Shown here piece by piece: positions 450 to 36,495 of a stretch of DNA of 36,648 nucleotides. Position 1 is the stretch's first letter; the number at the start of each line of letters is the position of its first letter. Origin of the DNA: a virus (taxonomy: Duplodnaviria; Heunggongvirae; Uroviricota; Caudoviricetes). The position numbers and the translations under genes are program-made. The DNA lies in the IMG/VR virus record IMGVR_UViG_2675903330_000001, one strand, 5' to 3'. The notes below the pieces were generated by a model. The model worked only from the letters and a program-made list of their open reading frames with translations, was not told the origin of the DNA and searched no databases.

Positions 450-1427
<978 letters not shown>

Positions 1428-1466
1428 TAAAGCATCAGGATTCCTGCTATCCTTGGCGGGAATTGA

Positions 1467-1907
<441 letters not shown>

Positions 1908-2276: not shown

Positions 2277-2575
2277 GATTTGCCCTCGCGTGAAAAATAT
2301 TTTCGATTATTTATAAAAAAGACTTGACCAAATCAAAAGGTACTGTTCCACGGATGAAATAAAGGGAGTTTTCGGCACCCCGGTTTTTGATGTGCGTGTG
2401 AGATTTCAAAACAGGTGCAGTGCAGCCCACCAGCGCGGTCGCTACGCGACTATTAACACCCGCCAATCCCTTTCCATGCCTCGATCTTTCCCTTCGTTAT
2501 AAAGCGTTTTAGGCGCTCTCCTGAATGCGCAGATCAGATAAATAATTTTACGCAAATTTAATGGAGGATAACCGG

Positions 2576-3127
2576 ATGAAAGAAGAATTAACCCTTACAG
2601 AAATTTCCCGTTTATACGGCTATACAATTAACGCCGCTAAGAAATGGCAAGAACGAGGAATGCCATTTAATACCAATACCCGCCGCGTGCCAGCCAAAGA
2701 AGGAACAGAATGGGTCTTGAAAAATATCATCAACCCGCTTAAAGAAACTACTGTCAAGGAACAAATCGACGTAGAGAAATTACGCCGTGAGAGAGCATTA
2801 GCAGATGCAGCCGAACGAGAGAACCAGGAAGCGATGAATCTCCTGATTCCCGTCGGGTATGTGGAGCAGGAGCTAGCGGAATATTGCGGGAAAGTGAAGC
2901 AGACTATTTTGCAGATCGCCACAATCGATGCCCTAGAAATTCTCGAATCTGCCAATGACCAGAAAACATTGAAGAATAAGCTAAGAGAGATTATCGAGCG
3001 TCGTTTAAATGAAGTAGGGGACTTGTTCGAAAATGCAGATTTGGGAGAAGACGAGGAAGAAGAATTACCATTAATGGATGAACCGGAACAAGAACCAGAA
3101 GAAGACGATGAATTTGATGTGTCTTAA
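2576..3127 (+). CDS. Nu1-like winged-HTH DNA-binding protein, probable terminase small subunit
   Basis: GGAGG 8 nt upstream of the ATG at 2576. N-terminus LTLTEISRLYGYTINAAKKWQERGMP resembles the lambda Nu1 HTH (TIQNWQEQGMP); acidic C-terminal tail. A gpA-type large terminase (9781) normally pairs with a Nu1-type small subunit. Confidence 0.5.
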   Translation: MKEELTLTEISRLYGYTINAAKKWQERGMPFNTNTRRVPAKEGTEWVLKNIINPLKETTVKEQIDVEKLRRERALADAAERENQEAMNLLIPVGYVEQELAEYCGKVKQTILQIATIDALEILESANDQKTLKNKLREIIERRLNEVGDLFENADLGEDEEEELPLMDEPEQEPEEDDEFDVS

Positions 3128-4097: not shown

Positions 4098-5117
4098 TTA
4101 AGCTGCGTATGCGTAGGCGCTGTAGTTGGTGTCATAGATAGCGTCATGCAGTGCCATATGTGCTTCGCGGATCTCGTCTTCGTTTACTTCAATCTCTTCT
4201 TGTTCTTCTTCGGTATCTTCCCAAGTGGTTTTGAATTTAGCCATAAAGTTATTGCGCAGTGTTTCAAAGTTGGTAACTGGTGCGGATTCTGCTTCAACCG
4301 GAACCGGAACTACTACCGGATCAGCTTCTTTCTGTTCTACTTCTTCACCGTTACCCCAACGATAGTTAAGGAGTTCTTCCAGTTCTTCATCAATGGATTT
4401 TTCTTCAACTGCTTCAACTTCAACCGCTGCTACTTCGAAAGTGGTTTCCTGTGCTGACAGTTCAGCTTTCAGAGATGCGTTTTCTGCTTTAACTGCTGCC
4501 ATTTCTGCTTCCAGTTCAGCAATGCGTGCGTTCAGTGCTTCAACTTCGGAAGATTCAACCACTGCAACTTCTTCTTTAACTTCTTCAACTACTACCGGAG
4601 CAACTTCTTTCTGTGCTTCTTTTTTGCAGAAGAAGGAGGAAGTAACCTGTAATGCGTGGTTGTAGAAGGAACCGCCTTTAGTGGTGTTAACAGTACCAGA
4701 AACATCTTTTACAGTGGATTCGGTAGCAACAGTACGGAAGCGTTTAGCAACTTCCTGGGTCTCTACGCCGTATTCGTTACGCTTGCTCTTGTGATGCATT
4801 ACAGCACGGAAGCCGGAAGCAGTTTTAACAACAGCGAGATAGTAAGTTTCATCGGCTTTAGCAGCACGAGCGAAGCAATAAACGGATTCACCTTCTACCA
4901 GTGTAGGTTTAACGTGACGTTTGTCGAAACGGTTAGTGATCTGCCATTCAGCACCGTCTTTGATGCCAGCATTCTGACGCATTTCGGTCAGAGTCTTACC
5001 GGATACTACTTCAAAGGATTTGTCTTGTTTGCTTGCTTTACCTTCCATGACGGTAATGTTCAGTTTGCCGTTGGATTTAATAAACAGGTTGAAGGTGATG
5101 CGCTTAGAATTTTTCAT
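4098..5117 (-). CDS. hypothetical protein (339 aa) with N-terminal globular domain and acidic Ala/Glu-rich coiled-coil
   Basis: Longest uninterrupted frame in the region, AGGAG RBS 10 nt upstream. The plus-strand ORFs over the same DNA are fragmented Ser/Thr-rich antisense artefacts. Confidence 0.6.
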   Translation of the reverse strand: MKNSKRITFNLFIKSNGKLNITVMEGKASKQDKSFEVVSGKTLTEMRQNAGIKDGAEWQITNRFDKRHVKPTLVEGESVYCFARAAKADETYYLAVVKTASGFRAVMHHKSKRNEYGVETQEVAKRFRTVATESTVKDVSGTVNTTKGGSFYNHALQVTSSFFCKKEAQKEVAPVVVEEVKEEVAVVESSEVEALNARIAELEAEMAAVKAENASLKAELSAQETTFEVAAVEVEAVEEKSIDEELEELLNYRWGNGEEVEQKEADPVVVPVPVEAESAPVTNFETLRNNFMAKFKTTWEDTEEEQEEIEVNEDEIREAHMALHDAIYDTNYSAYAYAA

Positions 5118-9780: not shown

Positions 9781-11685
9781 ATGAAACTAATTTCTAATAA
9801 GGCCAAATTAAAAAAGATTCTTAAAAATGCAGCCAAATATATTACGCCACCGCCTAAACTCCTTCCATCGGAATGGTGCGAATCTAATATGGTGCTGGTA
9901 GATGGTCCTCAAGCTGGGGATAAAGTTAAATTGCTGTCATTCCAGAAAGGTATGATTGATGCTCCTTTCCTTGAGAACAAGAAAAAGTATGTTCTGATGA
10001 CCAGTGCGCAGATCGGAAAGACTACCATCCTGAACGGTATCCTGTTTAACCAGATGGCTAACGATCCATGCAATATGATTATCGGACAATCAACCGCTAA
10101 AGAAATGTCTCAATATCTCGCTGGTAAGATCCGACCGTCTATCGAAGCATGTGATGCATTAAAAGACGTGGTTACAGACAAGAATGATCGCAATTCTGTT
10201 AATAACAACAATCAGCTCCAGCTCAAATCAAACCACTTCCTTTATATGGTATCGCTTACTAGTCCATCAACCCTGCGCGGTAAGACTGCAAAGGTCGGAC
10301 TACTAGACGAAATCGATGCTGCTACAGCCTCAGAAGAAGGTGATCCGGTGGCACTGGCTGCTAACCGTTTAACTACCTTTGGCGATGAAGGCCGATTAGT
10401 CGTATCCAGTACCCCGACCAGTAAGCTGGGAAGCATTAACCAGCAATGGTTATCAAGTGATATGCGTATGTTTTTTGTTCCGTGTCCTCATTGCGGGGAA
10501 CACCAGGTGATCGAGTGGGAAAACGTTCAATTTGAATGGCGTAACATCGATGGTAAGAACTTACCCGATCCTGATACCGCTCGTTATATTTGCCCCCACT
10601 GTAAGAACGCATGGACAGAAGGGGAACGAATCAGGGCAGTAGCACAAGGCGAGTGGAGAGCAACCCGTGAAAGTGAAGTAGCCGGATTCTGGATTAGCCG
10701 TCTGTATTCACCTTTCAGCACGATCCGCGCTTGTGTGGTTGATTTTAGTCATGCGTGGCAATCCTTTGATTTACAATCATTTTATAACACCGTGTTAGGC
10801 AAAGTATACGACGATCAGGACACGGCAGTAGAAGCAAATGAACTGGAACAACTCAAAACAGATGTTTCTATCGAGAATATCCCTGATGACGTGATTTTCT
10901 TGTGTGCGGGTACTGACCAGCAATTAGATCGCGCAGAAACTACAATCATGGGCGTGGCAAAGGATAAGATTTATATTCTGGATCATCGCAGCTTTTACGA
11001 TCATAACTGTGAACGATATGAATCCCCTGTATGGGATAGATTAATCAACTTCCATAAAACCAAATTTACTACTGTATCTGGTGATCGTGTTCCTATGCTC
11101 GCCAGCTTCCTTGATACATCGAACGGTCGATTCACTCAAGCTGGATACCGTATTTGCGGCAAGTGGAAGAACTTACACGCTATCAAAGGTAGTTCTGCTG
11201 GTAACGCTCCGATCATTCCGGTTAAACCTACCCGCACAGGTGGTCATGAATTGCTTATGTTGGGTGTTAATGTGGGTAAAACTGCATTTCGTGAAATGTT
11301 GGCTAGGAACCTGAAAGATAATCCTCATATTGGCTTAGAAATATCAGACACCGTTCCTGATGATTATCTCGATCAGCTTTTAAGTGAATCTGTCAAGCGT
11401 ACTACTACTGGCGTGAGATGGGTAAAGAACCCAGGCGTTAGGAACGAGGCGCTCGACTGCGCCGTGTATGCTACAGCGGCTTCTCGCTACGTCCTTTCAA
11501 AAATGTCATGGGATAAACTCATTGCAATGAAAGACAGCTTAAACAGCGTTAAAGAAGAACCCGTAAAAGCTCCTGAATCGCAATCTGACGAGCAAATCGA
11601 AGAAACTAAGCCAATCACACGACCGCAACGTCAAAACATCGCCAGACGCCCAAATAGAGGCCGTAGCTGGGTAACATCGTTCTAA
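9781..11685 (+). CDS. terminase large subunit, lambda gpA-like
   Basis: GAGGG RBS; Walker A-like [10 protein letters not shown]; paired Cys motifs CPHCGEHQ ... CPHCKNAW; 634 aa; lies upstream of the portal gene. Confidence 0.8.
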
Positions 11686-11757: not shown

Positions 11758-12255
11758 ATGAGTTTAGAACTAATTCCCTTAGTAATTCGTAAAGGCGAAA
11801 AAATCACGCTGGCGAATGAAGAGGGTGTAACAATTCAGGTAGGAAATAATAATAAAGGTATCATTTATCAGGTTGATGATACTCCGGCTAATCACGAGAT
11901 TAAAACCTTAGATTTTGCCGATGGTAAATATACCATCGTAATAACTTTGGATGAAGAACTAGTGTCAATGCAGCAATTGACTGTATTGCCCGTCTTTGCA
12001 AAACAATCCAAAAAACAGTATCTGCGGGAAACTATCGCCTTAATCGAGCAAGTTATTTTCGCCCGTTTATCTGGGGACGAAGCCGCATTATCTCAAATGA
12101 CCGTGAAAGGAAATACTTTCGCCTATGAGTCATTGGCTGTTCTCCAGACTCTAAAAGTCGATTATGAACGTCAACTGTCTAAATTAATTCAAGCCGAACG
12201 ACGTAAACAGGGAATTAGCCCGATTAAAAATATCAAATTACGTCTTACGCGATAA
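11758..12255 (+). CDS. hypothetical protein (165 aa) between terminase and portal
   Basis: Intact ORF with RBS; position is analogous to lambda gpW but no motif recognised. Confidence 0.45.
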   Translation: MSLELIPLVIRKGEKITLANEEGVTIQVGNNNKGIIYQVDDTPANHEIKTLDFADGKYTIVITLDEELVSMQQLTVLPVFAKQSKKQYLRETIALIEQVIFARLSGDEAALSQMTVKGNTFAYESLAVLQTLKVDYERQLSKLIQAERRKQGISPIKNIKLRLTR

Positions 12256-12265
12256 GGGGTAAATC

Positions 12266-13777
12266 ATGTTTAATCTTTTTCGACGCAAAAAGGCGGTAGA
12301 AACTCCAGTTAAAACTAATCACCGCCAGCAACAACAAAAAATCTTTATCGACAAACAAGTAGAAAAATTCCAGAAAGATTTGTCTAAGCGTTCTTTGGGC
12401 TTAGTCGGTGATCGAATTGATGGACAGCTTCAACAAGATACTATCACCGGAACGTTCAATAAGGCTCTCAAATCGAACGGTAAGCGCCTTTATGATCAGG
12501 GTCGTACTCTGGCCTTAAACACTTCCGTAGGCAGTCGATACACGCAATACATCACCGATATGGTGGTAGGTACTGGCCTAGATCCGAAGCCGTCAATCGT
12601 TAAATCAAATGGCAAACTTGATAGCGCACTGAATAAGCAGATCGAGAATGCTTTCTGGAAGTGGGCGCAGAATGCTAAACGCTTCTCTCGTAACGGTCGC
12701 TTTAACTTCCGTGAATTGCTGGTAATGGCTGAACGTGAGCGCGTTATGGGTGGTGAGTGCTTCATAGTTTTAACCAAAGAAAACAATGAGTTAAATGTTT
12801 CTATCCTGTCTGCTGATAAGTGCGACTGGACGCTCAACCGTGAAGTAAGCAAAGAACGTGCGATCTATCAGGGGATCGAGTATGACGTAGAAACAATGAA
12901 GCCCGTAGCATACTGGTTTCGTAAAGTCAACCTACTGACTCAGACTTACACAGGTGATAACTATCGTGTAGAAGCATCGCAAGTATGCCATTACTATCAA
13001 CCACTTACCGCCGAATCCCTGCGTGGTGTGACTGACTTCCTGCCAGTGATTAAGGATATCGCACATCAAGACGCATTCCGCGAAACTGCAATTATCCAGA
13101 AACGCATTGCAGCTAGCTCTATGGGCTTTATCGAGCGTCCGAAAGATTCTGGTGACGATTTTGATACTGGTGAAGATGATGAACAATATCAAGCGCCGGA
13201 AGTAGTACAGGATTTTGCACCTGGTACTATTCAGGAATTACCGGAAGGGGCAACGATCAAGAGCATCCAGGCGACGCAAAGCGGTGATGACTTTAACAGC
13301 TTCAATGATGCGATGTTTACTAGCGTATCAATGGGCTTAGGCGTGTTTAAACAGGGCTTGACTGGTGACACTAGCCAGATCAACTACTCAGCCGCACGTT
13401 TCGGTGAATTAACCCAGCGCACACGAGTTAAAGCACTGCAAAACAAATTAATTGAAACAGTGGTATCGCCAATTTTCGAAGCATATCTACGCCATTATTC
13501 CGCTCGTGGTATTGTTCCGATTCGTATTACTGCAATTCCGCATATTATCGATAACACTACTATTATTCGTCCGCGTTTTGAATCCGTCGATCCAATTAAA
13601 GACGTAAACGCCGAGATTGCTTTAATTGATAAAGGACTTAAATCACGTACTGCCGTTATATTAGAACGTGGTGATGACCCTGAAAAAGTATTCTCAGAGA
13701 TTCAAGCCGAAAAGAGCGCACTAAATATTATCGTTAATGGCGAGGGTGAAGAAAAAAATTCCCCAGCCGATCCCTAA
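12266..13777 (+). CDS. portal protein, lambda gpB family
   Basis: 503 aa; position after terL; overall resemblance to the lambda-family portal; acidic mid-region. Confidence 0.7.
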   Translation: MFNLFRRKKAVETPVKTNHRQQQQKIFIDKQVEKFQKDLSKRSLGLVGDRIDGQLQQDTITGTFNKALKSNGKRLYDQGRTLALNTSVGSRYTQYITDMVVGTGLDPKPSIVKSNGKLDSALNKQIENAFWKWAQNAKRFSRNGRFNFRELLVMAERERVMGGECFIVLTKENNELNVSILSADKCDWTLNREVSKERAIYQGIEYDVETMKPVAYWFRKVNLLTQTYTGDNYRVEASQVCHYYQPLTAESLRGVTDFLPVIKDIAHQDAFRETAIIQKRIAASSMGFIERPKDSGDDFDTGEDDEQYQAPEVVQDFAPGTIQELPEGATIKSIQATQSGDDFNSFNDAMFTSVSMGLGVFKQGLTGDTSQINYSAARFGELTQRTRVKALQNKLIETVVSPIFEAYLRHYSARGIVPIRITAIPHIIDNTTIIRPRFESVDPIKDVNAEIALIDKGLKSRTAVILERGDDPEKVFSEIQAEKSALNIIVNGEGEEKNSPADP

Positions 13778-13822
13778 TAACCAACGGGGGCGCAATGCCC
13801 CCAATTAATTAAAGGTGATTAA

Positions 13823-15826
13823 ATGCTTAAATTTCGCCGCGATCTTAACGGTTACGGTGGAGTTATTAATGAAGGGCATAACGATCAATACGAATTTGAA
13901 ATTGCTTTCTCAAGTACACAGCCTTATCAGCGCCAATTTTGGGATGAGCAAAATCAAGAAATGGTGGTATTAGATGAAATTCTGGTACATACACCGGAAG
14001 CGGTTGATCTGTCTCGTCTGAATAATAACGCTCCGTTGCTGTTTAATCATAATTTCGATAATCACATTGGTGTCGTTTGTAACGCTCGAATCGATGCGGA
14101 TAACGTAGGTCGTGCTCTGGTTAAATTCTCTAAGCATGGCACTTTGGCTAATGATATTCGCAATAAAGTCATTGAAGGTACGATGGAAAAAATTTCTGTC
14201 GGTTATGACATTAAAGAATATCACATCGATTATGCCAAAGGACAATTGATTGTTACTAAGTGGGCACCCTATGAACTCTCATTTGTCACCGTTCCCGCAG
14301 ACGATACGGTCGGTTTAAATCGCTCTCTAAATACTATCACAGTTAATTTGGAGGCTAAACGCGATATGACTAAAGAACAAATCGAAGAAATCAAAGAAGA
14401 ACAAGAATCCGCTCAGGTTGAAGAAACTCCGGTAGAAGAAATTAAAGAACCGGAAGTTGAAGAAACTCAAGAGCGCCAAGTTGAAGAGAATAAAGAAGAT
14501 GAAAATCTCGAAGACGGAAAAGACGCTGAACATCCTGAAAGTGTTGATGATGATAGTTCAACTGTTCGGGAAACAGAAGAAGTAAAAGAAGAACGTGAAG
14601 CCGCTCCGGTTGAAGAAGAAAAAATCGAGGAAGTGGCTGAACGTTCCGAAGAAGACGAATTAGAAATTCGCGAAATTGCACGCGAACTAAATATTGACGA
14701 CGAAGAATTGAAACGCGCATTGGCAATTAAAGACATGACGCCGGAAGCATTCCGCACTAAGGCACTAAATAATCTCGTCAATGCTCAACGTAATAACGAA
14801 CAACAAATTAAGGACTCTAAAATGGAAAAAACTTTTGACCTGAACAACGTAATTCGCTCTCTGGTAGATGGTGAAGCTCTGGGTGCTCACGAAGCCGAGT
14901 TTTCTGCGATGGCTGCTACTGCAACTATGCAGCGTGGTCGTGCTGCTCGTGGTGGCTCTGTATTCGTTCCGGCTGCTGCTATGCGTGCTGCTGCTGCTGG
15001 TAACACCAAAGCTGACCTGACTGCTATCACCGACGAAAAACTGCTGACTGAATCCTATGTTGAAATGCTGCTGCCGGAATCCGTTCTGGGTCGTCTGGGT
15101 GTGACCGTTCTGTCTGGCCTGAATGCTCCGGTTGCTGTTCCGAAAATGACTGCTTCCAGCGTTGAATCTTTCGGCTTCGTTGATGAAAACGGTGCTGCAC
15201 CGGAAGGTAAAGCCGAATTTGCTAACGTGAAAATGGCTCCTAAAACTTTCGCAGGTGGCAACCCGATCAGCCGTCAGTCTCTGAAAACCGTTCCGGGCAT
15301 CGCTACCCTGATCACTGATCACATTAACAAAGCTGTTCGTATCAAACTGGAACAACTGATTCTGTCTGATAAAGAAAATGCTCGCGGTCCGGCTGGTCTG
15401 GTTAAACAACTGGTAGACGGTGGTCGCGTTACTAAGAAAGCCGCTTTCAGCTACAAAGACTTCCTGAAAGAAATTGCAGCACTGACCGACGCTGGCGTTC
15501 CTGCTCAGGCGATCAAGTTTGCAATGAGCGGTGCAACTGCTGCTGAACTGGAATCTACCCTGAAAGATAACGGCGTTTCCGGTTATATCATCGAAAACGG
15601 CAAACTGGCTGGTTACGATGTAGTTACTTCTGGCGTTATTCCGGCAGACCACATCGTTCTGGGTGACTTCTCCGGTATTACTATCGGTGAGTGGGGCGGT
15701 CTGGAACTGGATATGGACGACACTACCTACCGTGCACAGTCTGCAATCGTTCCGCGTATCTGGGTAGACCTGGATTATGTTGTTACTCAGCCGGAAGCTC
15801 TGAAAGTTCTTCACATCTCCGAATGA
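13823..15826 (+). CDS. prohead protease - scaffold-like linker - major capsid protein (HK97 fold) fusion
   Basis: N-terminus matches the HK97-type prohead protease pattern (PLLFNHNFDNHIGVV ... ISVGYD ... ELSFVTVPADD); residues about 190-300 are a Glu-rich coiled-coil; the C-terminal about 330 aa is capsid-like with highly optimised codons. Confidence 0.75.
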   Translation: MLKFRRDLNGYGGVINEGHNDQYEFEIAFSSTQPYQRQFWDEQNQEMVVLDEILVHTPEAVDLSRLNNNAPLLFNHNFDNHIGVVCNARIDADNVGRALVKFSKHGTLANDIRNKVIEGTMEKISVGYDIKEYHIDYAKGQLIVTKWAPYELSFVTVPADDTVGLNRSLNTITVNLEAKRDMTKEQIEEIKEEQESAQVEETPVEEIKEPEVEETQERQVEENKEDENLEDGKDAEHPESVDDDSSTVRETEEVKEEREAAPVEEEKIEEVAERSEEDELEIREIARELNIDDEELKRALAIKDMTPEAFRTKALNNLVNAQRNNEQQIKDSKMEKTFDLNNVIRSLVDGEALGAHEAEFSAMAATATMQRGRAARGGSVFVPAAAMRAAAAGNTKADLTAITDEKLLTESYVEMLLPESVLGRLGVTVLSGLNAPVAVPKMTASSVESFGFVDENGAAPEGKAEFANVKMAPKTFAGGNPISRQSLKTVPGIATLITDHINKAVRIKLEQLILSDKENARGPAGLVKQLVDGGRVTKKAAFSYKDFLKEIAALTDAGVPAQAIKFAMSGATAAELESTLKDNGVSGYIIENGKLAGYDVVTSGVIPADHIVLGDFSGITIGEWGGLELDMDDTTYRAQSAIVPRIWVDLDYVVTQPEALKVLHISE

Positions 15827-15960
15827 ACTAACGTAGAACCATCTGAACCTTCCCCCGAATCGGGGGAAGAAAATCTGATTCCTAAACAGGAAGAAGATTC
15901 CCAGACGGTTACGGCGAAAGCCACAGTTAAAAAACAACGTAAAACTAAAGAATAATAATT

Positions 15961-15989
15961 AGCCCTGCCTTAATGGTGGGGCTTTTTTG
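15961..15989 (+). terminator. putative terminator after the capsid gene
   Basis: Imperfect AGCCC ... GGGCT hairpin followed by T6. Confidence 0.4.
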
Positions 15990-16018
15990 TATGTAAATAC
16001 TCCATAAAGGGGGTAACT

Positions 16019-16724: not shown

Positions 16725-17558
16725 ATGAATATTACACAAGATAACTTAGACATTTTCACGGGGTCGCATGTTGAAGTCTCCGTGTCTACTATGGTGGATA
16801 ACCAGCCGGACTTTTTCGATCCTGCATTTAGTCCTATCGAGAACATCGCAGCATTTCCGACGATAACCGAATCCACAGAGATCCAGACGTTAGAAGAATA
16901 TGACCATGATGTTACTGGTAAGTTGGCTGGCTATCGTAAACTTGAATCAACAACACTCACAGTAAACCGTGTTCTGGATGATGAACATCAAGCAATGTTG
17001 ATGAAAGCGGTAGAGGATAAAACCCCTTTACGCTTCCGTATGTTCTATGTTGTGAACTCTGGCTATAGTGCTGCTAACACAGGATACTACGTCATTTTTG
17101 ATGCATACGTCACATCACACAAAACCCGTGGTAGCGATAACAAAGTTACTACCATCGAATTTAAATTAGATCCTGATGGTGGGATTCTCGACCGTGGTAT
17201 TGCCACCGAAGGCCGGATCTTACGTCAAGGTGATTTTGGTTTGGGCGCTGGTGTACATCCATTCACAGGTCCGATTGATAGCGAAGCATTAGCCGGAAAC
17301 CGTTTCGTAACTTATCAGGGATCGAGCGTATCTAATCCATTTAGTGCTGATACTTCACTAATTCACGTTCAACCTAATGAAGATGGTGGATGGCAATTAA
17401 CTTGCACCGCTTCCGGCGCACCACGTTTACGAGTTCGCACAGTCCAGAAAGACGGTAATTCTGGATGGGTGAAAGTGTATTCCACAGAAGAAAAACCGAC
17501 ACCAGCCGAGATTGAAGCCGTTTCTATCCATGACCGGATCGACTTCGGGGAATACTGA
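16725..17558 (+). CDS. putative tail-associated protein (277 aa), C-terminal motif shared with the tail fiber
   Basis: Weak by-eye resemblance to lambda gpV-type tube proteins; the C-terminal EEKPTPAEIEAVS mirrors DKPTPAEIGAYS in the fiber gene 17632-21156. Confidence 0.35.
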   Translation: MNITQDNLDIFTGSHVEVSVSTMVDNQPDFFDPAFSPIENIAAFPTITESTEIQTLEEYDHDVTGKLAGYRKLESTTLTVNRVLDDEHQAMLMKAVEDKTPLRFRMFYVVNSGYSAANTGYYVIFDAYVTSHKTRGSDNKVTTIEFKLDPDGGILDRGIATEGRILRQGDFGLGAGVHPFTGPIDSEALAGNRFVTYQGSSVSNPFSADTSLIHVQPNEDGGWQLTCTASGAPRLRVRTVQKDGNSGWVKVYSTEEKPTPAEIEAVSIHDRIDFGEY

Positions 17559-17631: not shown

Positions 17632-20600
17632 ATGCAGTCGATCCAATTTAAACGAACAAATGTTTCTGGCAAAAAACCAACGCCGGAACAATTACAGGTC
17701 GGTGAGGTAGCAATCAACCTTAAAGACCATGTTATTTTCACCAAAGACCGAGATCATGAAGTAGTTCAAATCTCTGTTTCTCCTGAAACTCACGCGGCAC
17801 TAGAATCTAAAGTTGATGCTAACAAACAAGAATTGGATAGCACAATTGCAGTAAATGACCGCAATATTCACGCTAAAGTAGATGAAATTAAACAAACTAC
17901 TGATGCAACCATCGCAGCAAATCACGCAGAAATTAACAATAAAGTTGATGTAATTAAACGCGAAACCGACGCGACAATCGAGGCCAATAAAAATAAAGCT
18001 GCTTCCGATCTTGCTGGTGTTAAAGCTGAATTGTCGGATACCATCAACGCTAATAAAAATGCGGCTGCTGTAGCAACTCAGGAACTGGACACCCGCATCA
18101 ATAAAAAAGTTGATGATATTAAATCCCGTACCGATGCAACCATCGTAAGCAATCACAAAGCAATCAATGACAAAGTTGATTTGATTAAGGCAGAAACTGA
18201 CCGCACTATCGCAGCAAATCACGCCTATGCGGAAAATCAGTTAACTGACACCTACAATAACCTTACTGGTGTGATTGCAGCCAATAAGCAAGAGGCAGCG
18301 GATAACGTCGCAGCATTAACCCGTGATGTTGAAGCCAAAAATACAGCAATTCATAGCAAAGTTGACAATAACAAGTCTTACACTGATTCTGAATTGGCAC
18401 GCTTAGAAAGCCGTATTGATGCAGCCGATGGATCAAGTGATGGTAAGTACATCAAAAAGCACGTAAACACTTGCACTGATGGCTATTTGCTGTCTAAGAC
18501 CGCAAACCCTTTTGATGATCCGAGTGCTCTTAATCTTGATTACTTTGGTGCATTTCGCATGAATGACCTGGCGGGTCATATTGCAATGATCTTGCATGTT
18601 CCGCACCCATCCGGCGTTAATCATGCTCGTGGTTTTGAGTTCACTTATGGGTCTAATCCGGTTCATACGGTAAGAACATACGGCTATGATGAATTGGGAC
18701 ATTTGGCATATTCTCACCGCATGTATCATGAAGGTGATAAACCTACTCCGGCTGAAATTGGCGCATATTCGAAAGCAGAAATTGACCGACTGTTCCAGAA
18801 GACGCTTAATTTTGGTATCGAGGGTGGTTGGTTTAAACTAGGCACTTTGACAATGCCACAACAACACGGTCGCACGGCTAAGATCCGTTTGGTTGGTGGT
18901 AACGGTTATAACGTAGGACATAATGGACAAGCCAATATTATCGAATTGGTGATTCGATGCGGCAACAATAGCCCGAAAGGTGTTGTATTCAATGCGTATT
19001 ATACTATTTGGCATTATGAACAACATTTTTGCGCTATTCCAACCGATGGCGACAATTACGATCTTTACGCTTACTACGGTGCACATACAGGATTTGTTTT
19101 AGCAGAATATCAAGTTTCTTCCGGTGGTGTTTCTTTAAACCTGTTGGATACTCCTGAATACCTGGGCGGTGAAAAACCTGTTGCAGATGAAATTTTTGAT
19201 GCTCTTAACATTTCATCGTTCAATAACTTTAGCAACCGTGGAACGTTAAATTTTGGTGGAAACCATCAAGGTCAATATGATATTGAGCATTTAAACGAAC
19301 AACCGACAAATGCTAAAAAGATGTTGCGTCGCTTCCGTAGTTGTGCTCCTGCCACTATCTGGCATGAGACAGTTGATGATAACAAGTATCGTCTTGCTAC
19401 TGGATACGAAGATACAAATCAGGAATTATTGCTGTCAGCAACATCCGGGTTACATATCAAGAAATTAACATTGGATGGCGGTGTTACTGGAAATTCTGGT
19501 ATTGATATTCGTCGAGGACCAAATGAAGCAAGCCATTTTAATTTCATGGATTATCGCACTGGACAAGATGTTCGTAATGGCTGGTTTGGCTTCGGTGATG
19601 GAACAACCAAAGATTTTATTTGGTGGAACGATAACGGTCAAAACTCGATAAACCTGATTGAAGACGGTGAATTACATATTACTGGCGGTAGAGGCCAGAA
19701 AATTGTAATGAATAGCGAAGTGGCATTATCTGAAAATGCTCGTTTGGCTGTCAAAGGTGGTAACTATGGTTTAATCCTTCGTAATGATGGTTCTAGCTTC
19801 CATATTCTTACTACCGATTTAAAAGATTCCTTTGGGACGTGGAATACTCGTAGACCATTTAGTTATGATTTCGCCGAAGGTGGATTAGATCTAGGTGGCA
19901 CAGCTACCGCACGCTGTTTACATCTGGGAATTGATGGTAGCACCCGCATCGAAGATAATATGGTGTTTAGATCAGGGTCTCGTCAGTCAATGGACTATAT
20001 TGAATTAATCCATTGGGGTAACAGTAATACAGGACGCAATAACGTTTTGAGTATGCGAGATTCCAAAGGTTTCTTGGCTGAATTTGAACGCGTGGGGGGT
20101 ACTAACGGCGTTAAAACCAGATTCTTTGGCGAAACATTCACTGATGGTACATTATACCTAAATCAGATGAATAATAGCTCTGAACGATTCTCTATTAATA
20201 ATTGGGGAAATTCAGAAGTTGGTCGCGCGGCAGTGATGGAAGTCGGTGATTCCAAAGGTTATCACTTCTATACTGAACGTAGGACAGATAACAGTTTGAT
20301 GTTTGATGTTGCTGGCGCTTTTACTGTGCATGGACCTTCCGGGATTACTATCAAAAACTCTGCTGGTGCTCGCCACGTCTGGTTTAGAGATGATAGCGAT
20401 ACGGAAAAGGCTGTTATCTGGGCTACAGATGAGGGTATTTTACATATTCGCAATAACCACGGTGGACAATTTACACATCACTTCCAGGGCGCGATGATTA
20501 AACTGGAAGGGCGTGTTCCTTATGCCGCAGATCAAGGACTTATCCGTGGTGAGGTTTCTGGTGGTGCATATGTTGCATGGAGAGACCGACCTGCTGGTTT

Positions 20601-21156
20601 GTTGGTTGACTGTCAACAAAGCGTTGATAGTGCTCATGCTATTTGGAAAGCGGTTGATTGGGGGCGTAACTACATCGCTGCTATGGACGTTCATTGTCCC
20701 GGTGATAGTAATAATACTGCGGCAGCGGTTCTTCATGTTCAGGGTGCTGATTATCAATTCCATGCAAGTGGAGAATTTCATGCCACTGGTAACGGAAACT
20801 TTAACGATGTTTATATTCGTTCCGATCGTCGTCTGAAAATTAATGTTGAAGATTACGAAGAAAATGCGGTGGATAAGGTAAATAAACTCAAAGTTAAAAC
20901 CTACGATAAAGTTAAATCTCTTAATGACCGAGAAGTTATAGGTCATGAGATTGGTATTATCGCACAGGATTTACAAGAGGTATTACCGGAAGCTGTTAAA
21001 ACCGCAAAAATTGGTGGTTTTGATAACCCAGAAGAAATTTTAACAATTTCAAACTCCGCAGTGAACGCGCTTTTAATTAAAGCGGTCCAAGAAATGAGCG
21101 AAGAAAATAAACTTCTTCGTGAACGTCTTGCTGCAATTGAAGCTAAATTAGGGTAA
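17632..21156 (+). CDS. side (L-shaped-type) tail fiber with C-terminal intramolecular chaperone domain
   Basis: 1174 aa; N-terminal about 21-aa repeats (KVD-IK--TDATI-AN); C-terminus SDRRLKINVEDYEENAVDKVNKLKVKTYD ... LLRERLAAIEAKLG is typical of the self-cleaving endosialidase-type chaperone (peptidase S74). Confidence 0.75.
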   Translation: MQSIQFKRTNVSGKKPTPEQLQVGEVAINLKDHVIFTKDRDHEVVQISVSPETHAALESKVDANKQELDSTIAVNDRNIHAKVDEIKQTTDATIAANHAEINNKVDVIKRETDATIEANKNKAASDLAGVKAELSDTINANKNAAAVATQELDTRINKKVDDIKSRTDATIVSNHKAINDKVDLIKAETDRTIAANHAYAENQLTDTYNNLTGVIAANKQEAADNVAALTRDVEAKNTAIHSKVDNNKSYTDSELARLESRIDAADGSSDGKYIKKHVNTCTDGYLLSKTANPFDDPSALNLDYFGAFRMNDLAGHIAMILHVPHPSGVNHARGFEFTYGSNPVHTVRTYGYDELGHLAYSHRMYHEGDKPTPAEIGAYSKAEIDRLFQKTLNFGIEGGWFKLGTLTMPQQHGRTAKIRLVGGNGYNVGHNGQANIIELVIRCGNNSPKGVVFNAYYTIWHYEQHFCAIPTDGDNYDLYAYYGAHTGFVLAEYQVSSGGVSLNLLDTPEYLGGEKPVADEIFDALNISSFNNFSNRGTLNFGGNHQGQYDIEHLNEQPTNAKKMLRRFRSCAPATIWHETVDDNKYRLATGYEDTNQELLLSATSGLHIKKLTLDGGVTGNSGIDIRRGPNEASHFNFMDYRTGQDVRNGWFGFGDGTTKDFIWWNDNGQNSINLIEDGELHITGGRGQKIVMNSEVALSENARLAVKGGNYGLILRNDGSSFHILTTDLKDSFGTWNTRRPFSYDFAEGGLDLGGTATARCLHLGIDGSTRIEDNMVFRSGSRQSMDYIELIHWGNSNTGRNNVLSMRDSKGFLAEFERVGGTNGVKTRFFGETFTDGTLYLNQMNNSSERFSINNWGNSEVGRAAVMEVGDSKGYHFYTERRTDNSLMFDVAGAFTVHGPSGITIKNSAGARHVWFRDDSDTEKAVIWATDEGILHIRNNHGGQFTHHFQGAMIKLEGRVPYAADQGLIRGEVSGGAYVAWRDRPAGLLVDCQQSVDSAHAIWKAVDWGRNYIAAMDVHCPGDSNNTAAAVLHVQGADYQFHASGEFHATGNGNFNDVYIRSDRRLKINVEDYEENAVDKVNKLKVKTYDKVKSLNDREVIGHEIGIIAQDLQEVLPEAVKTAKIGGFDNPEEILTISNSAVNALLIKAVQEMSEENKLLRERLAAIEAKLG

Positions 21157-22155: not shown

Positions 22156-22626
22156 ATGACTACTAAATTTGATATTTTTTCTGGTGGCCTCGTTGGTCTG
22201 TTTCTGCATGAAGAAGTAACTAACACCGATCTTGACAGTGAAAGCTATCTGGAAATTCCAGAATGTGCGGCTTTCCCGGAAACTGGTGTAGAACGTTCTA
22301 CTGTCGATGTTCCTAACTTCGGTGGTCCGTATAACCGTAAGCTGGTTGGTCGTATGTCTGTACCGGATATCGAACTTTCGATCAACTACATGCCGGGTAA
22401 CGAAGTACACGAAAAACTGATTAAAGCAACCGAAGACGGTAAGCGCGTACAGATTAAAATTGCTTACTACATCGACGCTACGAAAAAATCTGGTGTACAT
22501 ATCGCTTATAACGGCTTCCTGTCTAAAACTACCATGACTGGTGGTGAGGATGCTGTAGTAGGCCGTACCTTCACCTTTGTAGTAGATGGTGCTCCGGTTA
22601 AACAAGCTGTTTTCCAGAAACTCTAA
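22156..22626 (+). CDS. major tail tube protein
   Basis: 156 aa, immediately upstream of the G/GT chaperone pair and the tape measure gene; optimal codon usage; terminator-like hairpin after the stop. Confidence 0.6.
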   Translation: MTTKFDIFSGGLVGLFLHEEVTNTDLDSESYLEIPECAAFPETGVERSTVDVPNFGGPYNRKLVGRMSVPDIELSINYMPGNEVHEKLIKATEDGKRVQIKIAYYIDATKKSGVHIAYNGFLSKTTMTGGEDAVVGRTFTFVVDGAPVKQAVFQKL

Positions 22627-34827: not shown

Positions 34828-36495
34828 TTAAATTCCAAATTCCTGTAATGGACCTGGTATTTCCTCTTCTGGTTTCCAGTCTTTATCTGTCAGCATGTCT
34901 AAACATGGATGCAGAACAAGCCCGTTACTCTCCAGAATCTGCCTATCATTGATAGTTTTCAAATCGACAAAGATTTGTCCTTTCCTCGTTCCTCTTGAAT
35001 TTTCTATTACAACTCTCTGGGTCTTTCCATCGATGTATTCCAGCACAAACAAGTTTTTATTTCTGTCAATCCTGCTACACCCGATCCGCTTTAGAGCTTG
35101 CTTAATCTTAAACCGGACCTTTAGTCGTTCCTCGTTATAAACATCTTCTAAATCAAATTCTGCGAGCTTCTCCCAGCCTTGAGAGTCCACAGAATACATT
35201 TCCTCTTCTGCCATCTTGATCTGATTGTAGAGTGTTTCACGCTCGCTATTGAGGGTAGTAATCTGATCGGCTAGCTCCTTCGTTGCTCCTGTCATAGCAG
35301 AAAGGGCAATCAGGTTATCAATCTTGCGTGATATCTCATCAACCTGTACTTTCAACGCCGGAACCGGATTAGCCTTGTCCTCAGCAATCCATATTTTATC
35401 AGCCAGCAATTGCAATACAGCTTTCTCTAATTGATCACCTCGAAAACTCCAGTTTGGATGCTCGCAATCAAGTCTACGTGAACGGGTCGCATCACATGTA
35501 TAACGATACTGGTCAGAACGTTTGTTCGTTCCCTTCACTTTAACCATAGCGCAACCGCAATGATCACATTTCAATAGGCCAATACCACTAAGCAGGGGGA
35601 TCGGTTTAACTTCTTCCTTGTCTCCAAAGTTCCATGCTCTAGCACCAATATTTTTCTTAAGGTGATAGAACGTAGCATCATCAATAACACGAGGGTAATA
35701 ATCCTTTAACTCATAGTTAACACCATCTACAGAGACTTCCTTGATACCAATCAAAGCGCGGGTATGGAACAACCTTTCAACCATTGCCCGTGACCATTTT
35801 GAATGCTTCTTATTACTAACCGCTGGTGGCGGTGTATATGTCTCGTTAAGGTGATCCAGTATTTCGGCGGTTGAACGTCCATTCTTCCGTAATTCCACAA
35901 TCTCCTGAACAACAGGGAAGTATGTAGGATGAGGCAACACATAACCGGAAGTGGTATCCGTCCACCACATATTCTTTCCAACTTCCTCGATTGCCACTGC
36001 CGGATTCTGGGGATTTTCTTGATGGGCTTTAATCTTAATCAGTGCGCTTGAGTTAGTACGATTGCGCTTAGTCTGGCTTTCCTCATTACCACGGATGAAT
36101 AAAAGGATGGAGAACATCAGGTCCATCGGGTTAGCGGTAACAGTATCCAGCGAGTAGATCTTGTTATCCATGCCAGTAACAATGGTTATCCCCCTACGGA
36201 TGATTGAAAGGAATAACTCCTGCGCACTGACAATATCGGCACGGGATAAGCGGTCCAAGTTTTCAATGAATAGCCAGCTACCAACAGGAACGGATCTACC
36301 AATTGCATCAAGGAAACGAGATAGCGCCCCTGTTTTGGAGTTAGCACCCTTAAACGCAGATACACCCAGATCCTGATAATCATTTACCAGTTCAAGGTCA
36401 TACTTTGCCGCAACCTCTCTCGCCATCCTGATTTGTCGTTCATAACTCGAACCATCATTCTGACGCATAGACGAGAAGCGAATATACGAATACAG
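34828..36495 (-). CDS. large serine recombinase (prophage integrase), 5' end interrupted by IS1
   Basis: Resolvase-type catalytic region, recombinase domain, zinc ribbon (CDHCGC ... CDATRSRRLDCEH) and coiled-coil. The catalytic Y-x-R-x-S motif (LYSYIRFSS) lies upstream of the first ATG (36468) and runs directly into the IS1 terminus at 36496 with no start codon in between. Confidence 0.8.
   Translation of the reverse strand: MYSYIRFSSMRQNDGSSYERQIRMAREVAAKYDLELVNDYQDLGVSAFKGANSKTGALSRFLDAIGRSVPVGSWLFIENLDRLSRADIVSAQELFLSIIRRGITIVTGMDNKIYSLDTVTANPMDLMFSILLFIRGNEESQTKRNRTNSSALIKIKAHQENPQNPAVAIEEVGKNMWWTDTTSGYVLPHPTYFPVVQEIVELRKNGRSTAEILDHLNETYTPPPAVSNKKHSKWSRAMVERLFHTRALIGIKEVSVDGVNYELKDYYPRVIDDATFYHLKKNIGARAWNFGDKEEVKPIPLLSGIGLLKCDHCGCAMVKVKGTNKRSDQYRYTCDATRSRRLDCEHPNWSFRGDQLEKAVLQLLADKIWIAEDKANPVPALKVQVDEISRKIDNLIALSAMTGATKELADQITTLNSERETLYNQIKMAEEEMYSVDSQGWEKLAEFDLEDVYNEERLKVRFKIKQALKRIGCSRIDRNKNLFVLEYIDGKTQRVVIENSRGTRKGQIFVDLKTINDRQILESNGLVLHPCLDMLTDKDWKPEEEIPGPLQEFGI

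Follow-up and report, generated by a model that had tools for sequence, protein, structure and literature searches.

In phage lambda (C/Nu3), the herpesvirus HSV-1 (UL26/UL26.5) and the archaeal virus HFTV1 (gp17/gp17.5), an in-frame internal start yields an abundant C-terminal product, and the rare full-length protease form is incorporated via the C-terminal part that both products have in common. For HFTV1, the nested protease/scaffold genes were shown by ribosome profiling (bioRxiv 10.64898/2026.09.13.751334). Other viruses encode the protease and the capsid protein in one frame: a "tripartite capsid gene" of Gifsy-2 was published in 2010 (Virology 402:355, cited in PMC8538268). The NCBIfam model NF045541 ("prohead protease/major capsid protein fusion protein"), PHROG 4523 ("major head and protease protein"), PHROG 617 (major head protein, fused type) and the SEA-PHAGES label "major capsid and protease fusion protein", which appears in five genome papers, catalogue exactly protease-capsid fusions of the kind analyzed here, and none of them records internal starts. 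In the literature searched, which was an incomplete sample, internal initiation was reported for protease/scaffold genes only and not for protease-capsid fusions.

We analyzed such a fused gene in IMG/VR virus record IMGVR_UViG_2675903330_000001, a 36,648-nucleotide (nt) stretch of DNA, referred to here as the window, that is a segment of an Escherichia coli chromosome with a prophage. One uninterrupted open reading frame (ORF) of 667 codons extends on the plus strand from the ATG at 13823 to the TGA stop at 15826 (13823..15826, stop included). Its 667-amino-acid (aa), 73.4 kDa product is 100% identical to an annotated E. coli protein. An earlier sequence-only reading had given these coordinates and this length exactly and had proposed self-processing capsid assembly from a single polypeptide. 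We consider it probable that the ORF instead comprises nested in-frame genes with a common C-terminus, and that initiation within the ORF supplies most of the capsid protein, because a step in codon usage coincides with an invariant internal ATG that is preceded by a Shine-Dalgarno (SD) sequence. Most capsid subunits would then probably never carry the protease or the scaffold-like region. As in the nested genes described above, an in-frame internal start codon with a ribosome-binding site is present, here at both Met182 (site A) and Met334 (site B), and the mRNA is open at both. The analysis adds the well-supported and testable prediction that tripartite genes are nested translation units.

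Candidate internal start sites and the codon-usage step

Site B (14810..14824, plus strand) consists of AAGGA at 14810-14814, a 7-nt spacer and the ATG of Met334 at 14822. Its duplex with the anti-SD sequence (−5.8 kcal/mol) ranks in the top 3% of ORF positions, and the 61-nt window that surrounds Met334, essentially the least structured of the ORF, has a folding energy of −0.9 kcal/mol vs. an ORF mean of −10.4, which corresponds to the 99th percentile of openness. Met334 is one of 30 invariant columns among 121 homologues, including clades 30–39% identical to the window protein, and it is as conserved as the catalytic His and Ser of the protease, though placed in a low-confidence linker of the AlphaFold2 model. 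The AAG and the ATG of the site are kept in 31 of 31 close alleles, while the two residues between SD and ATG vary; AAG is the minority Lys codon of the ORF (6 of 41, vs. 35 AAA). Across clades, the SD-like sequence is spelled by differing residues (IKD as AAGGA, KGK as AAAGGAAAA). An SD-preceded ATG occurs at site B in 74 of 87 loci, compared with 7.2% of other in-frame ATGs. The product of site B, if used, would be a 334-aa, 35.1 kDa capsid precursor with the N-terminal peptide (f)MEKTFDLNNVIR or EKTFDLNNVIR.

Site A (14350..14368, plus strand) combines GGAGG at 14350-14354 and an 11-nt spacer with the ATG of Met182 at 14366. With a duplex energy of −9.3 kcal/mol (top 0.6% of ORF positions) it has the strongest SD in the ORF, its mRNA lies at the 94th percentile of openness, and both SD and ATG are kept in 31 of 31 close alleles. 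Initiation at this site would give a 486-aa, 52.8 kDa scaffold-capsid form with the N-terminus MTKEQIEEIK. An SD-ATG just past the protease domain is also found in DCP80, R4C (GGAGG), phiHAP-1, and Bas97, and a Met lies 10–30 residues past the PADxxVG protease motif in 60% of 126 representatives, vs. ~27% calculated from a Met frequency of 2%. Met182 has no counterpart in a large clade marked by the sequence "MEFSLN".

Anti-SD pairing is weaker at Met1 than at either internal site, with the SD AAAGGTGAT and the ATG spanning 13811..13825 (plus strand; duplex −4.3 kcal/mol). Between the portal stop (13777) and this start, a GC-rich hairpin without a T-run, ACGGGGGCGCAATGCCCCCAA, was read from the sequence at 13784..13804 (plus strand); a terminator scan caught its minus-strand image. 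The hairpin may damp translation from Met1 and so limit the full-length protease form. A promoter scan of the ORF gave no internal promoter above chance (3 sites vs. 4.1 expected) and does not support an internal transcript.

The frequency of optimal codons (Fop) was counted on E. coli-preferred codons with Glu and Lys left out, and the change point was placed by maximum likelihood at residue 331, with Fop 0.48 before and 0.88 after (log-likelihood ratio 52). The codon adaptation index (CAI) rises in three tiers, from 0.30 (residues 1-181) to 0.43 (182-333) and 0.77 (334-667). The remaining prophage genes have a CAI of 0.25–0.37, save the tail tube gene (0.62) and the minus-strand ORF at 4098-5117 (0.70). 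After the step, 29 of 30 Leu codons are CTG, vs. 5 of 22 before it, and all 31 Gly codons are GGT or GGC. The sequence-only reading had remarked on markedly optimized codons in the C-terminal part; the effect is real and sharply bounded, and the remark is the most informative point of that reading and a new lead. Such a step is unexpected if only the full-length protein is synthesized, because all codons would then be read equally often.

All 29 distinct close alleles analyzed have the step at residues 307-344, and 28 of them at 329-344. In the "MEFSLN" clade, which has site B only, the step falls 2–5 codons from the ATG (for example, ATG 304 with step 306, and ATG 301 with step 303). In the DCP80, Bas97, L038, L046, and L056 lineages the step lies just past site A and the scaffold region is codon-adapted as well, which argues against codon selection on the retained capsid domain alone. 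The codon step goes with whichever internal start a lineage has. In a lineage test of 20 representatives under 70% identity, with a match window of −5 to +30 codons from an SD-ATG, a significant step was found in 16, and in 10 of these 16 it was near an SD-ATG vs. 2.07 expected (0 of 200,000 simulations).

The strongest competing explanation is that the ORF is a true polyprotein, in which every subunit is made from Met1 as a 73 kDa fusion, ~415 fusions assemble and are trimmed by their own protease, and the internal ATGs are ordinary Met codons. It matches the database annotation and the uninterrupted frame in all relatives. We estimate that a T=7 prohead could physically hold 415 internal domains of ~44 kDa, which would occupy about half of it. 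The Gifsy-2 gene is reportedly tripartite too, with a mature capsid consisting of the C-terminal part only. We nevertheless regard a polyprotein as unlikely, since it leaves unexplained the three tiers of codon adaptation with a sharp step at Met334, the movement of the step with the internal SD-ATG among lineages, the kept rare AAG codon and the SD-like sequences made from different amino acids, the very open mRNA at Met334, and the invariance of a Met within a low-confidence linker. Self-processing assembly from one polypeptide is therefore probably not how these capsids are built; a codon step at an invariant SD-ATG points to internal initiation.

A two-product gene in the style of HK97 is considerably less probable still. 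Here Met182 would be the sole internal start, an abundant 53 kDa form would bring a delta-like domain on each subunit, and the step at 331 would be merely apparent, a result of few informative codons in a Glu/Lys-rich region. The GGAGG of Met182 (−9.3) as the strongest SD of the ORF, its conservation in close alleles, and the several related lineages that step just past site A are all in keeping with this idea, but residues 182-333 hold 98 informative codons with an Fop of 0.55, vs. 0.88 after Met334, and the CAI, in which Glu and Lys are counted, is 0.43 there vs. 0.77 in 334-667. Moreover, the step of all 29 distinct close alleles falls at 307-344 (28 at 329-344), and Met334 is invariant, whereas Met182 is missing from the "MEFSLN" clade.

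Several points weigh against nested translation. The SD of Met334 is only moderate (AAGGA, −5.8 kcal/mol), and the most distant fusions (R4C, Mica, and Alexa) lack an SD-ATG at site B. In 6 of the 16 lineages with a significant step, the step is not beside an SD-ATG. The compared loci share descent, so that raw counts overstate their independence and the lineage test is only a rough correction, and the optimal-codon list and CAI weights were entered by hand. The codon steps could in part reflect exchange of capsid modules, as alleles differ most in their capsid domain, and the invariant Met with the nearby Lys-Asp could be part of a protease cleavage motif, which could coexist with a start site.

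Domain architecture, spread of the fusion and proposed assembly

Peptidase_S78 (PF04586) matches residues 40-162 of the 667-aa protein (41.4 bits, gathering cut-off 21, E 2e-10; Pfam), Phage_capsid (PF05065) matches residues 410-664 (90.4 bits, cut-off 24.2, E 2e-25; Pfam), and PHROG 617 aligns end to end (residues 23-663 with profile positions 26-621 of 626, E 7.7e-91). The sequence-only reading had named a prohead protease in the N-terminal ~180 aa, an acidic coiled-coil in the middle, and an HK97-fold capsid part at the C-terminus. With both hidden Markov model searches successful, for S78 and for the HK97 capsid family, its protease, its capsid, and its three-part domain order are borne out; of the middle region, the acidity stands and the coiled-coil does not, as detailed below.

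The S78 (HK97 gp4-type) prohead serine protease domain covers residues ~21-165 (13883..14317, plus strand) and is supported by PF04586 and the aligned catalytic residues. Alignment with HK97 gp4 pairs His76 (14048-14050) and Ser125 (14195-14197), both on the plus strand, with gp4 His65 and Ser114, the catalytic residues of that enzyme. His76 and Ser125 are invariant in the 121 homologues and 100% conserved in 146 representatives plus the window protein. The domain is predicted by AlphaFold2 with a predicted local distance difference test (pLDDT) score of 72–87. The NCBIfam equivalog TIGR01543 (proheadase_HK97) scores 35.6 bits, under its cut-off of 59. The protein is a member of the S78 family by Pfam and not an HK97 gp4 equivalog, and its proteolytic activity is predicted.

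The protease is followed by an acidic linker (residues 157-272; 14291..14638, plus strand) that is predicted to be intrinsically disordered, with pLDDT below 30 and no secondary structure, and that differs in length and sequence between homologues. Asp and Glu make up 43% of residues 182-290, with a net charge of −34. The coiled-coil label was dropped because AlphaFold2 gives no structure at 157-272; the model has a mean pLDDT of only 65, and for these residues we conclude nothing beyond "no predicted structure". The only helical part of the middle region is a three-helix module at residues 276-330 (14648..14812, plus strand), with helices at 276-288, 293-300, and 307-330 (pLDDT 60–70) and nearly invariant R278, E281, A295, I296, G299, and F305 among the 121 homologues. 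This module is the best candidate for a true scaffolding (delta-like) element, and under nested translation only the long forms would carry it.

The segment that begins at Met334 (residues 334-398; 14822..15016, plus strand) has a CAI of 0.80 and contains a conserved FDLxxVIRSL motif and conserved G378, P383, and R388, the latter three just upstream of the proposed mature start at ~399. The mature capsid chain of phage R4C (PDB 8GTA) has no counterpart of this segment, which is therefore either a propeptide, presumably removed by cleavage, or disordered; the mature N-terminus is predicted to fall between residues 389 and 399. The HK97-fold major capsid protein body occupies residues ~399-667 (15017..15823, plus strand) and would have a mass of ~28.5 kDa if cut at ~399. 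It is supported by PF05065, by a sequence match to 8GTA (E 1.5e-25), in which chain residue 12 aligns with query residue 410 and the chain start corresponds to window residue ~399, and by Foldseek searches with the predicted structure, which retrieved 8gta_A (E 5e-17) and HK97 Head II (2ft1_G, TM score 0.71; 1ohg_A, TM score 0.64). The pLDDT of the capsid body is mostly 70–92, and the model is confident across most of 410-667. An hhalign comparison with HK97 gp5 puts Ala459 at the position of the chainmail residue K169 with a probability of only 20% and leaves N356 and E363 unaligned. Among close alleles (L008-L040), the capsid domain (15017-15823) is the most variable part of the gene, with a synonymous value of 0.18 vs. 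0.06–0.10 in 13823-14821, and it is also the most variable at amino-acid sites, pointing to mosaic alleles or to diversifying pressure acting on the shell protein.

An identical E. coli protein is present in NCBI (P0001), where it is named "phage prohead protease, HK97 family" or "phage major capsid family protein", and the gene occurs at 90–96% nucleotide identity in 49 of 5426 complete E. coli genomes (~1%). An all-against-all HMMER search gave at least 466 matching clusters (50% identity) at E ≤ 1e-30, and since the best 150 are nearly all 560–700 residues in length, we take these to be fused. Among isolated phages, R4C, the RcCronus group, Mica, the FoX phages (whose label reads "major capsid protein and protease"), Arya, Bas97, phiHAP-1, and DCP80 carry homologous fusions, and thaumarchaeal proviruses also have a protease-capsid fusion. 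A megablast search of the gene against 50,697 phage records returned no match; relatives from isolated phages were found at the protein level only, the best being DCP80 (45%). NF045541 scores 132.7 bits, far under its cut-off of 525, and aligns with residues 22-346 only (model positions 5-282 of 634), so the protein has the architecture of that model but belongs to another subfamily. The tripartite architecture is a known kind, represented by PHROG 617 and 4523, NF045541, at least 466 clusters, and Gifsy-2, and the ORF at 13823-15826 is an ordinary member of it; the sequence-only reading had called such fusions much less common than separate genes, but they are no rarity.

The sequence signatures suggest the following route of expression and assembly. 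Initiation at Met1, with a weak SD past the hairpin, would give a rare 73 kDa form with the S78 protease, acidic linker, three-helix module, and capsid; Met182 (GGAGG) would possibly give a 53 kDa scaffold-capsid form; and Met334 (AAGGA, open mRNA) would receive most initiations and yield, from a stretch of highly adapted codons, the abundant 35 kDa capsid precursor. With the HK97-fold domain in common, the forms would all co-assemble into a procapsid of T=7 size around the portal, with the N-terminal extensions of the long forms pointing inward. Because the long forms would co-assemble through the shared domain, protease and scaffold would be packaged sub-stoichiometrically and would need no targeting signal of their own. 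The crowded protease (His76/Ser125) would next cleave not only itself but also the linker and the short propeptide (334 to ~398), the fragments would exit, and a mature shell protein of ~28–29 kDa would stay.

Tripartite genes are widespread: one sub-family alone has at least 466 clusters, the allele group of this ORF is carried by ~1% of complete E. coli genomes, and Gifsy-like phages as well as archaeal proviruses have such genes too. Their annotation as single proteins raises a question of stoichiometry, namely how a capsid of ~415 identical polyproteins could keep from packing 415 proteases and scaffolds as well, and this question disappears if the internal starts are used. If nested translation is true, the logic would be like that of Gag/Gag-Pol, by alternative initiation, and the genes would deliver cargo into the procapsid covalently and without a signal, which would be useful for capsid engineering. 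Annotation pipelines would then miss the real product of the major capsid gene, and studies of capsid-sensing defence as well as virion proteomics would need the correct precursor.

The region after the stop and the prophage setting

The frame continues beyond the TGA for 42 in-frame sense codons that end in TAA TAA (15827..15958, plus strand). This possible UGA read-through extension would be acidic at first and end in a basic tail (KKQRKTKE / KKVGRPPKAK), and a hairpin lies within it at 15850-15868. The post-stop frame and its register are kept in 35 loci (21 distinct nucleotide variants, 28–45 codons), so all indels are multiples of 3, and neither of the other two frames is open. All 35 loci have TGA as their stop; most other lineages end in TAA, and no other lineage has this extension. 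In a codon-position test on the extension, variable sites (12, 19, and 18) were not in excess at the third position. Read-through, with Trp or another residue at the UGA, would create the junction peptide VLHISE-W-TNVEPSEPSPESGEENLIPK. Frame preservation suggests that UGA read-through possibly adds a charged tail to a minority of capsid subunits. Immediately past the TAA TAA, an intrinsic terminator (15961..15983, or 15961..15993 at its wider limits, plus strand) with a 9-bp stem, 6 GC pairs, and TTTTTTG follows the capsid gene.

A broader proposal, which we find doubtful, is that the one frame is recoded at both ends: three nested starts would set the protease:scaffold:capsid ratio, leaky UGA read-through would tail a few subunits, and the dominant start would shift between lineages. 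The dominant start would have moved between the post-protease and pre-capsid sites across the family, toggling between an HK97-like regime, with scaffold on every subunit, and a lambda-like, sub-stoichiometric one, while the gene order stayed unchanged.

The ORF is a head-assembly gene of a temperate, siphophage-like E. coli prophage. The genes upstream of it stand in a lambda-like order: 9781-11685 encodes a large terminase of the lambda gpA type, 11758-12255 a head-tail joining protein, and 12266-13777 a portal of the lambda family. The frame is unbroken in 31 close IMG/VR alleles and intact at ≥80% coverage in 44 of the 49 matching complete E. coli genomes, and hundreds of diverged homologues have the same length as the 667-aa protein, which also dispels the earlier concern that a sequencing error hides a stop between domains. 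That a sequencing error or recent mutation joined separate protease, scaffold, and capsid genes is excluded by these independent alleles and genomes and by the at least 466 diverged clusters, the best 150 nearly all of 560–700 aa; no point in support of such an artefact or pseudogene was found, and the sole truncated relatives examined are one case of IS3-family insertion and one of a gene caller's choice of start.

Two proteins considered as natural split relatives, in which Met334 would act as a true gene start, were rejected as uninformative: P0325 (365 aa) begins at a gene-caller internal start inside an intact 643-codon ORF, and P0142 (297 aa) owes its short length to an IS3-family insertion. 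In GCA_020887765.2 (L090, 2501-4564), an IS3-family insertion interrupts a relative of the gene after codon 297, and in a metagenome contig (L088, 1667-3598) the called gene is without the protease part, with an internal start picked within an intact 643-codon ORF; such genes are annotated inconsistently.

Elsewhere in the window, the minus-strand ORF at 4098-5117 (339 aa; CAI 0.70, Fop 0.84) is the second most codon-adapted gene, has an acidic C-terminal half, and gave no Pfam or PHROG family; its codon adaptation points to high expression of this prophage protein. The PHROG 158 major tail protein is represented by two paralogues, one of 277 aa (16725-17558; CAI 0.31) and one of 156 aa that is likely the tail tube (22156-22626; CAI 0.62). 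The 277-aa paralogue is followed by a 1174-aa protein (17632-21156) similar to a long tail fibre's distal subunit, and the two genes lie between those for head completion and those for the tail. Host-type genes, one for a 2-hydroxyacid dehydrogenase and one a short ORF with a PHP domain, occupy the left end of the window (450-1907), a gene like that of a terminase small subunit is found at 2561-3127, 6.6 kb away from the large terminase, and a large serine recombinase (34828-36468, minus strand) lies at the right end. Together these probably mark the prophage limits and the integration module.

Comparison with known systems

The Gifsy-2 gene resembles the ORF at 13823-15826 in that a single frame, located directly after the portal gene of a temperate enterobacterial phage, encodes a protease, a central scaffold-like region, and an HK97-type capsid protein, with a strong SD-ATG (Met221, GAGGAG) right past the protease domain. 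It differs in its protease, which is annotated as Clp-type vs. S78 here, in its weak codon step (0.46 to 0.59 at residue 223), and in the sequence itself, as no relationship was detected and no Gifsy-2 record is among the tblastn matches listed. Gifsy-2 uses a lambda gpD-like decoration trimer, as stated in PMC8538268, whereas no decoration gene was recognized beside the ORF. The two genes are architectural analogues and not homologues. Further strong SD-preceded in-frame starts occur at Val392/Met395 of the Gifsy-2 gene (L089, NC_010393, 22471-24561), and the idea of nested starts may apply to this unrelated tripartite gene as well.

Gene 006 of Dinoroseobacter phage vB_DshS-R4C is, by comparison, a homologous S78-linker-capsid fusion of 629 aa (31% identity), with an SD-ATG (GGAGG, Met189) immediately past the protease domain. 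Its deposited capsid chain, 8GTA, comprises the C-terminal 268 residues only, adopts the HK97 fold, and is structurally the best match. Unlike the gene studied here, it has no SD-ATG at the Met334 position, and its codon step is weak. The R4C structure paper (PMC10276861) mentions neither the protease, processing or cleavage, a precursor, nor internal starts, so the mature N-terminus cannot be taken from it. In HK97, a protease of the same family (gp4, with the His and Ser aligned) acts with a capsid protein of the same fold (gp5) whose N-terminal extension, the delta domain, is removed after assembly, but the two are separate genes, one for the gp4 protease and one for the gp5 delta domain and capsid.

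If its internal starts are used, the tripartite gene would join lambda C/Nu3 and herpes UL26/UL26.5, with a shared capsid module as the new twist. In lambda, HSV-1, and HFTV1 the part common to the nested products is the scaffold and the capsid gene is separate, whereas in the ORF at 13823-15826 the products would have the capsid protein in common, with as many as three nested N-termini and with internal starts that are predicted.

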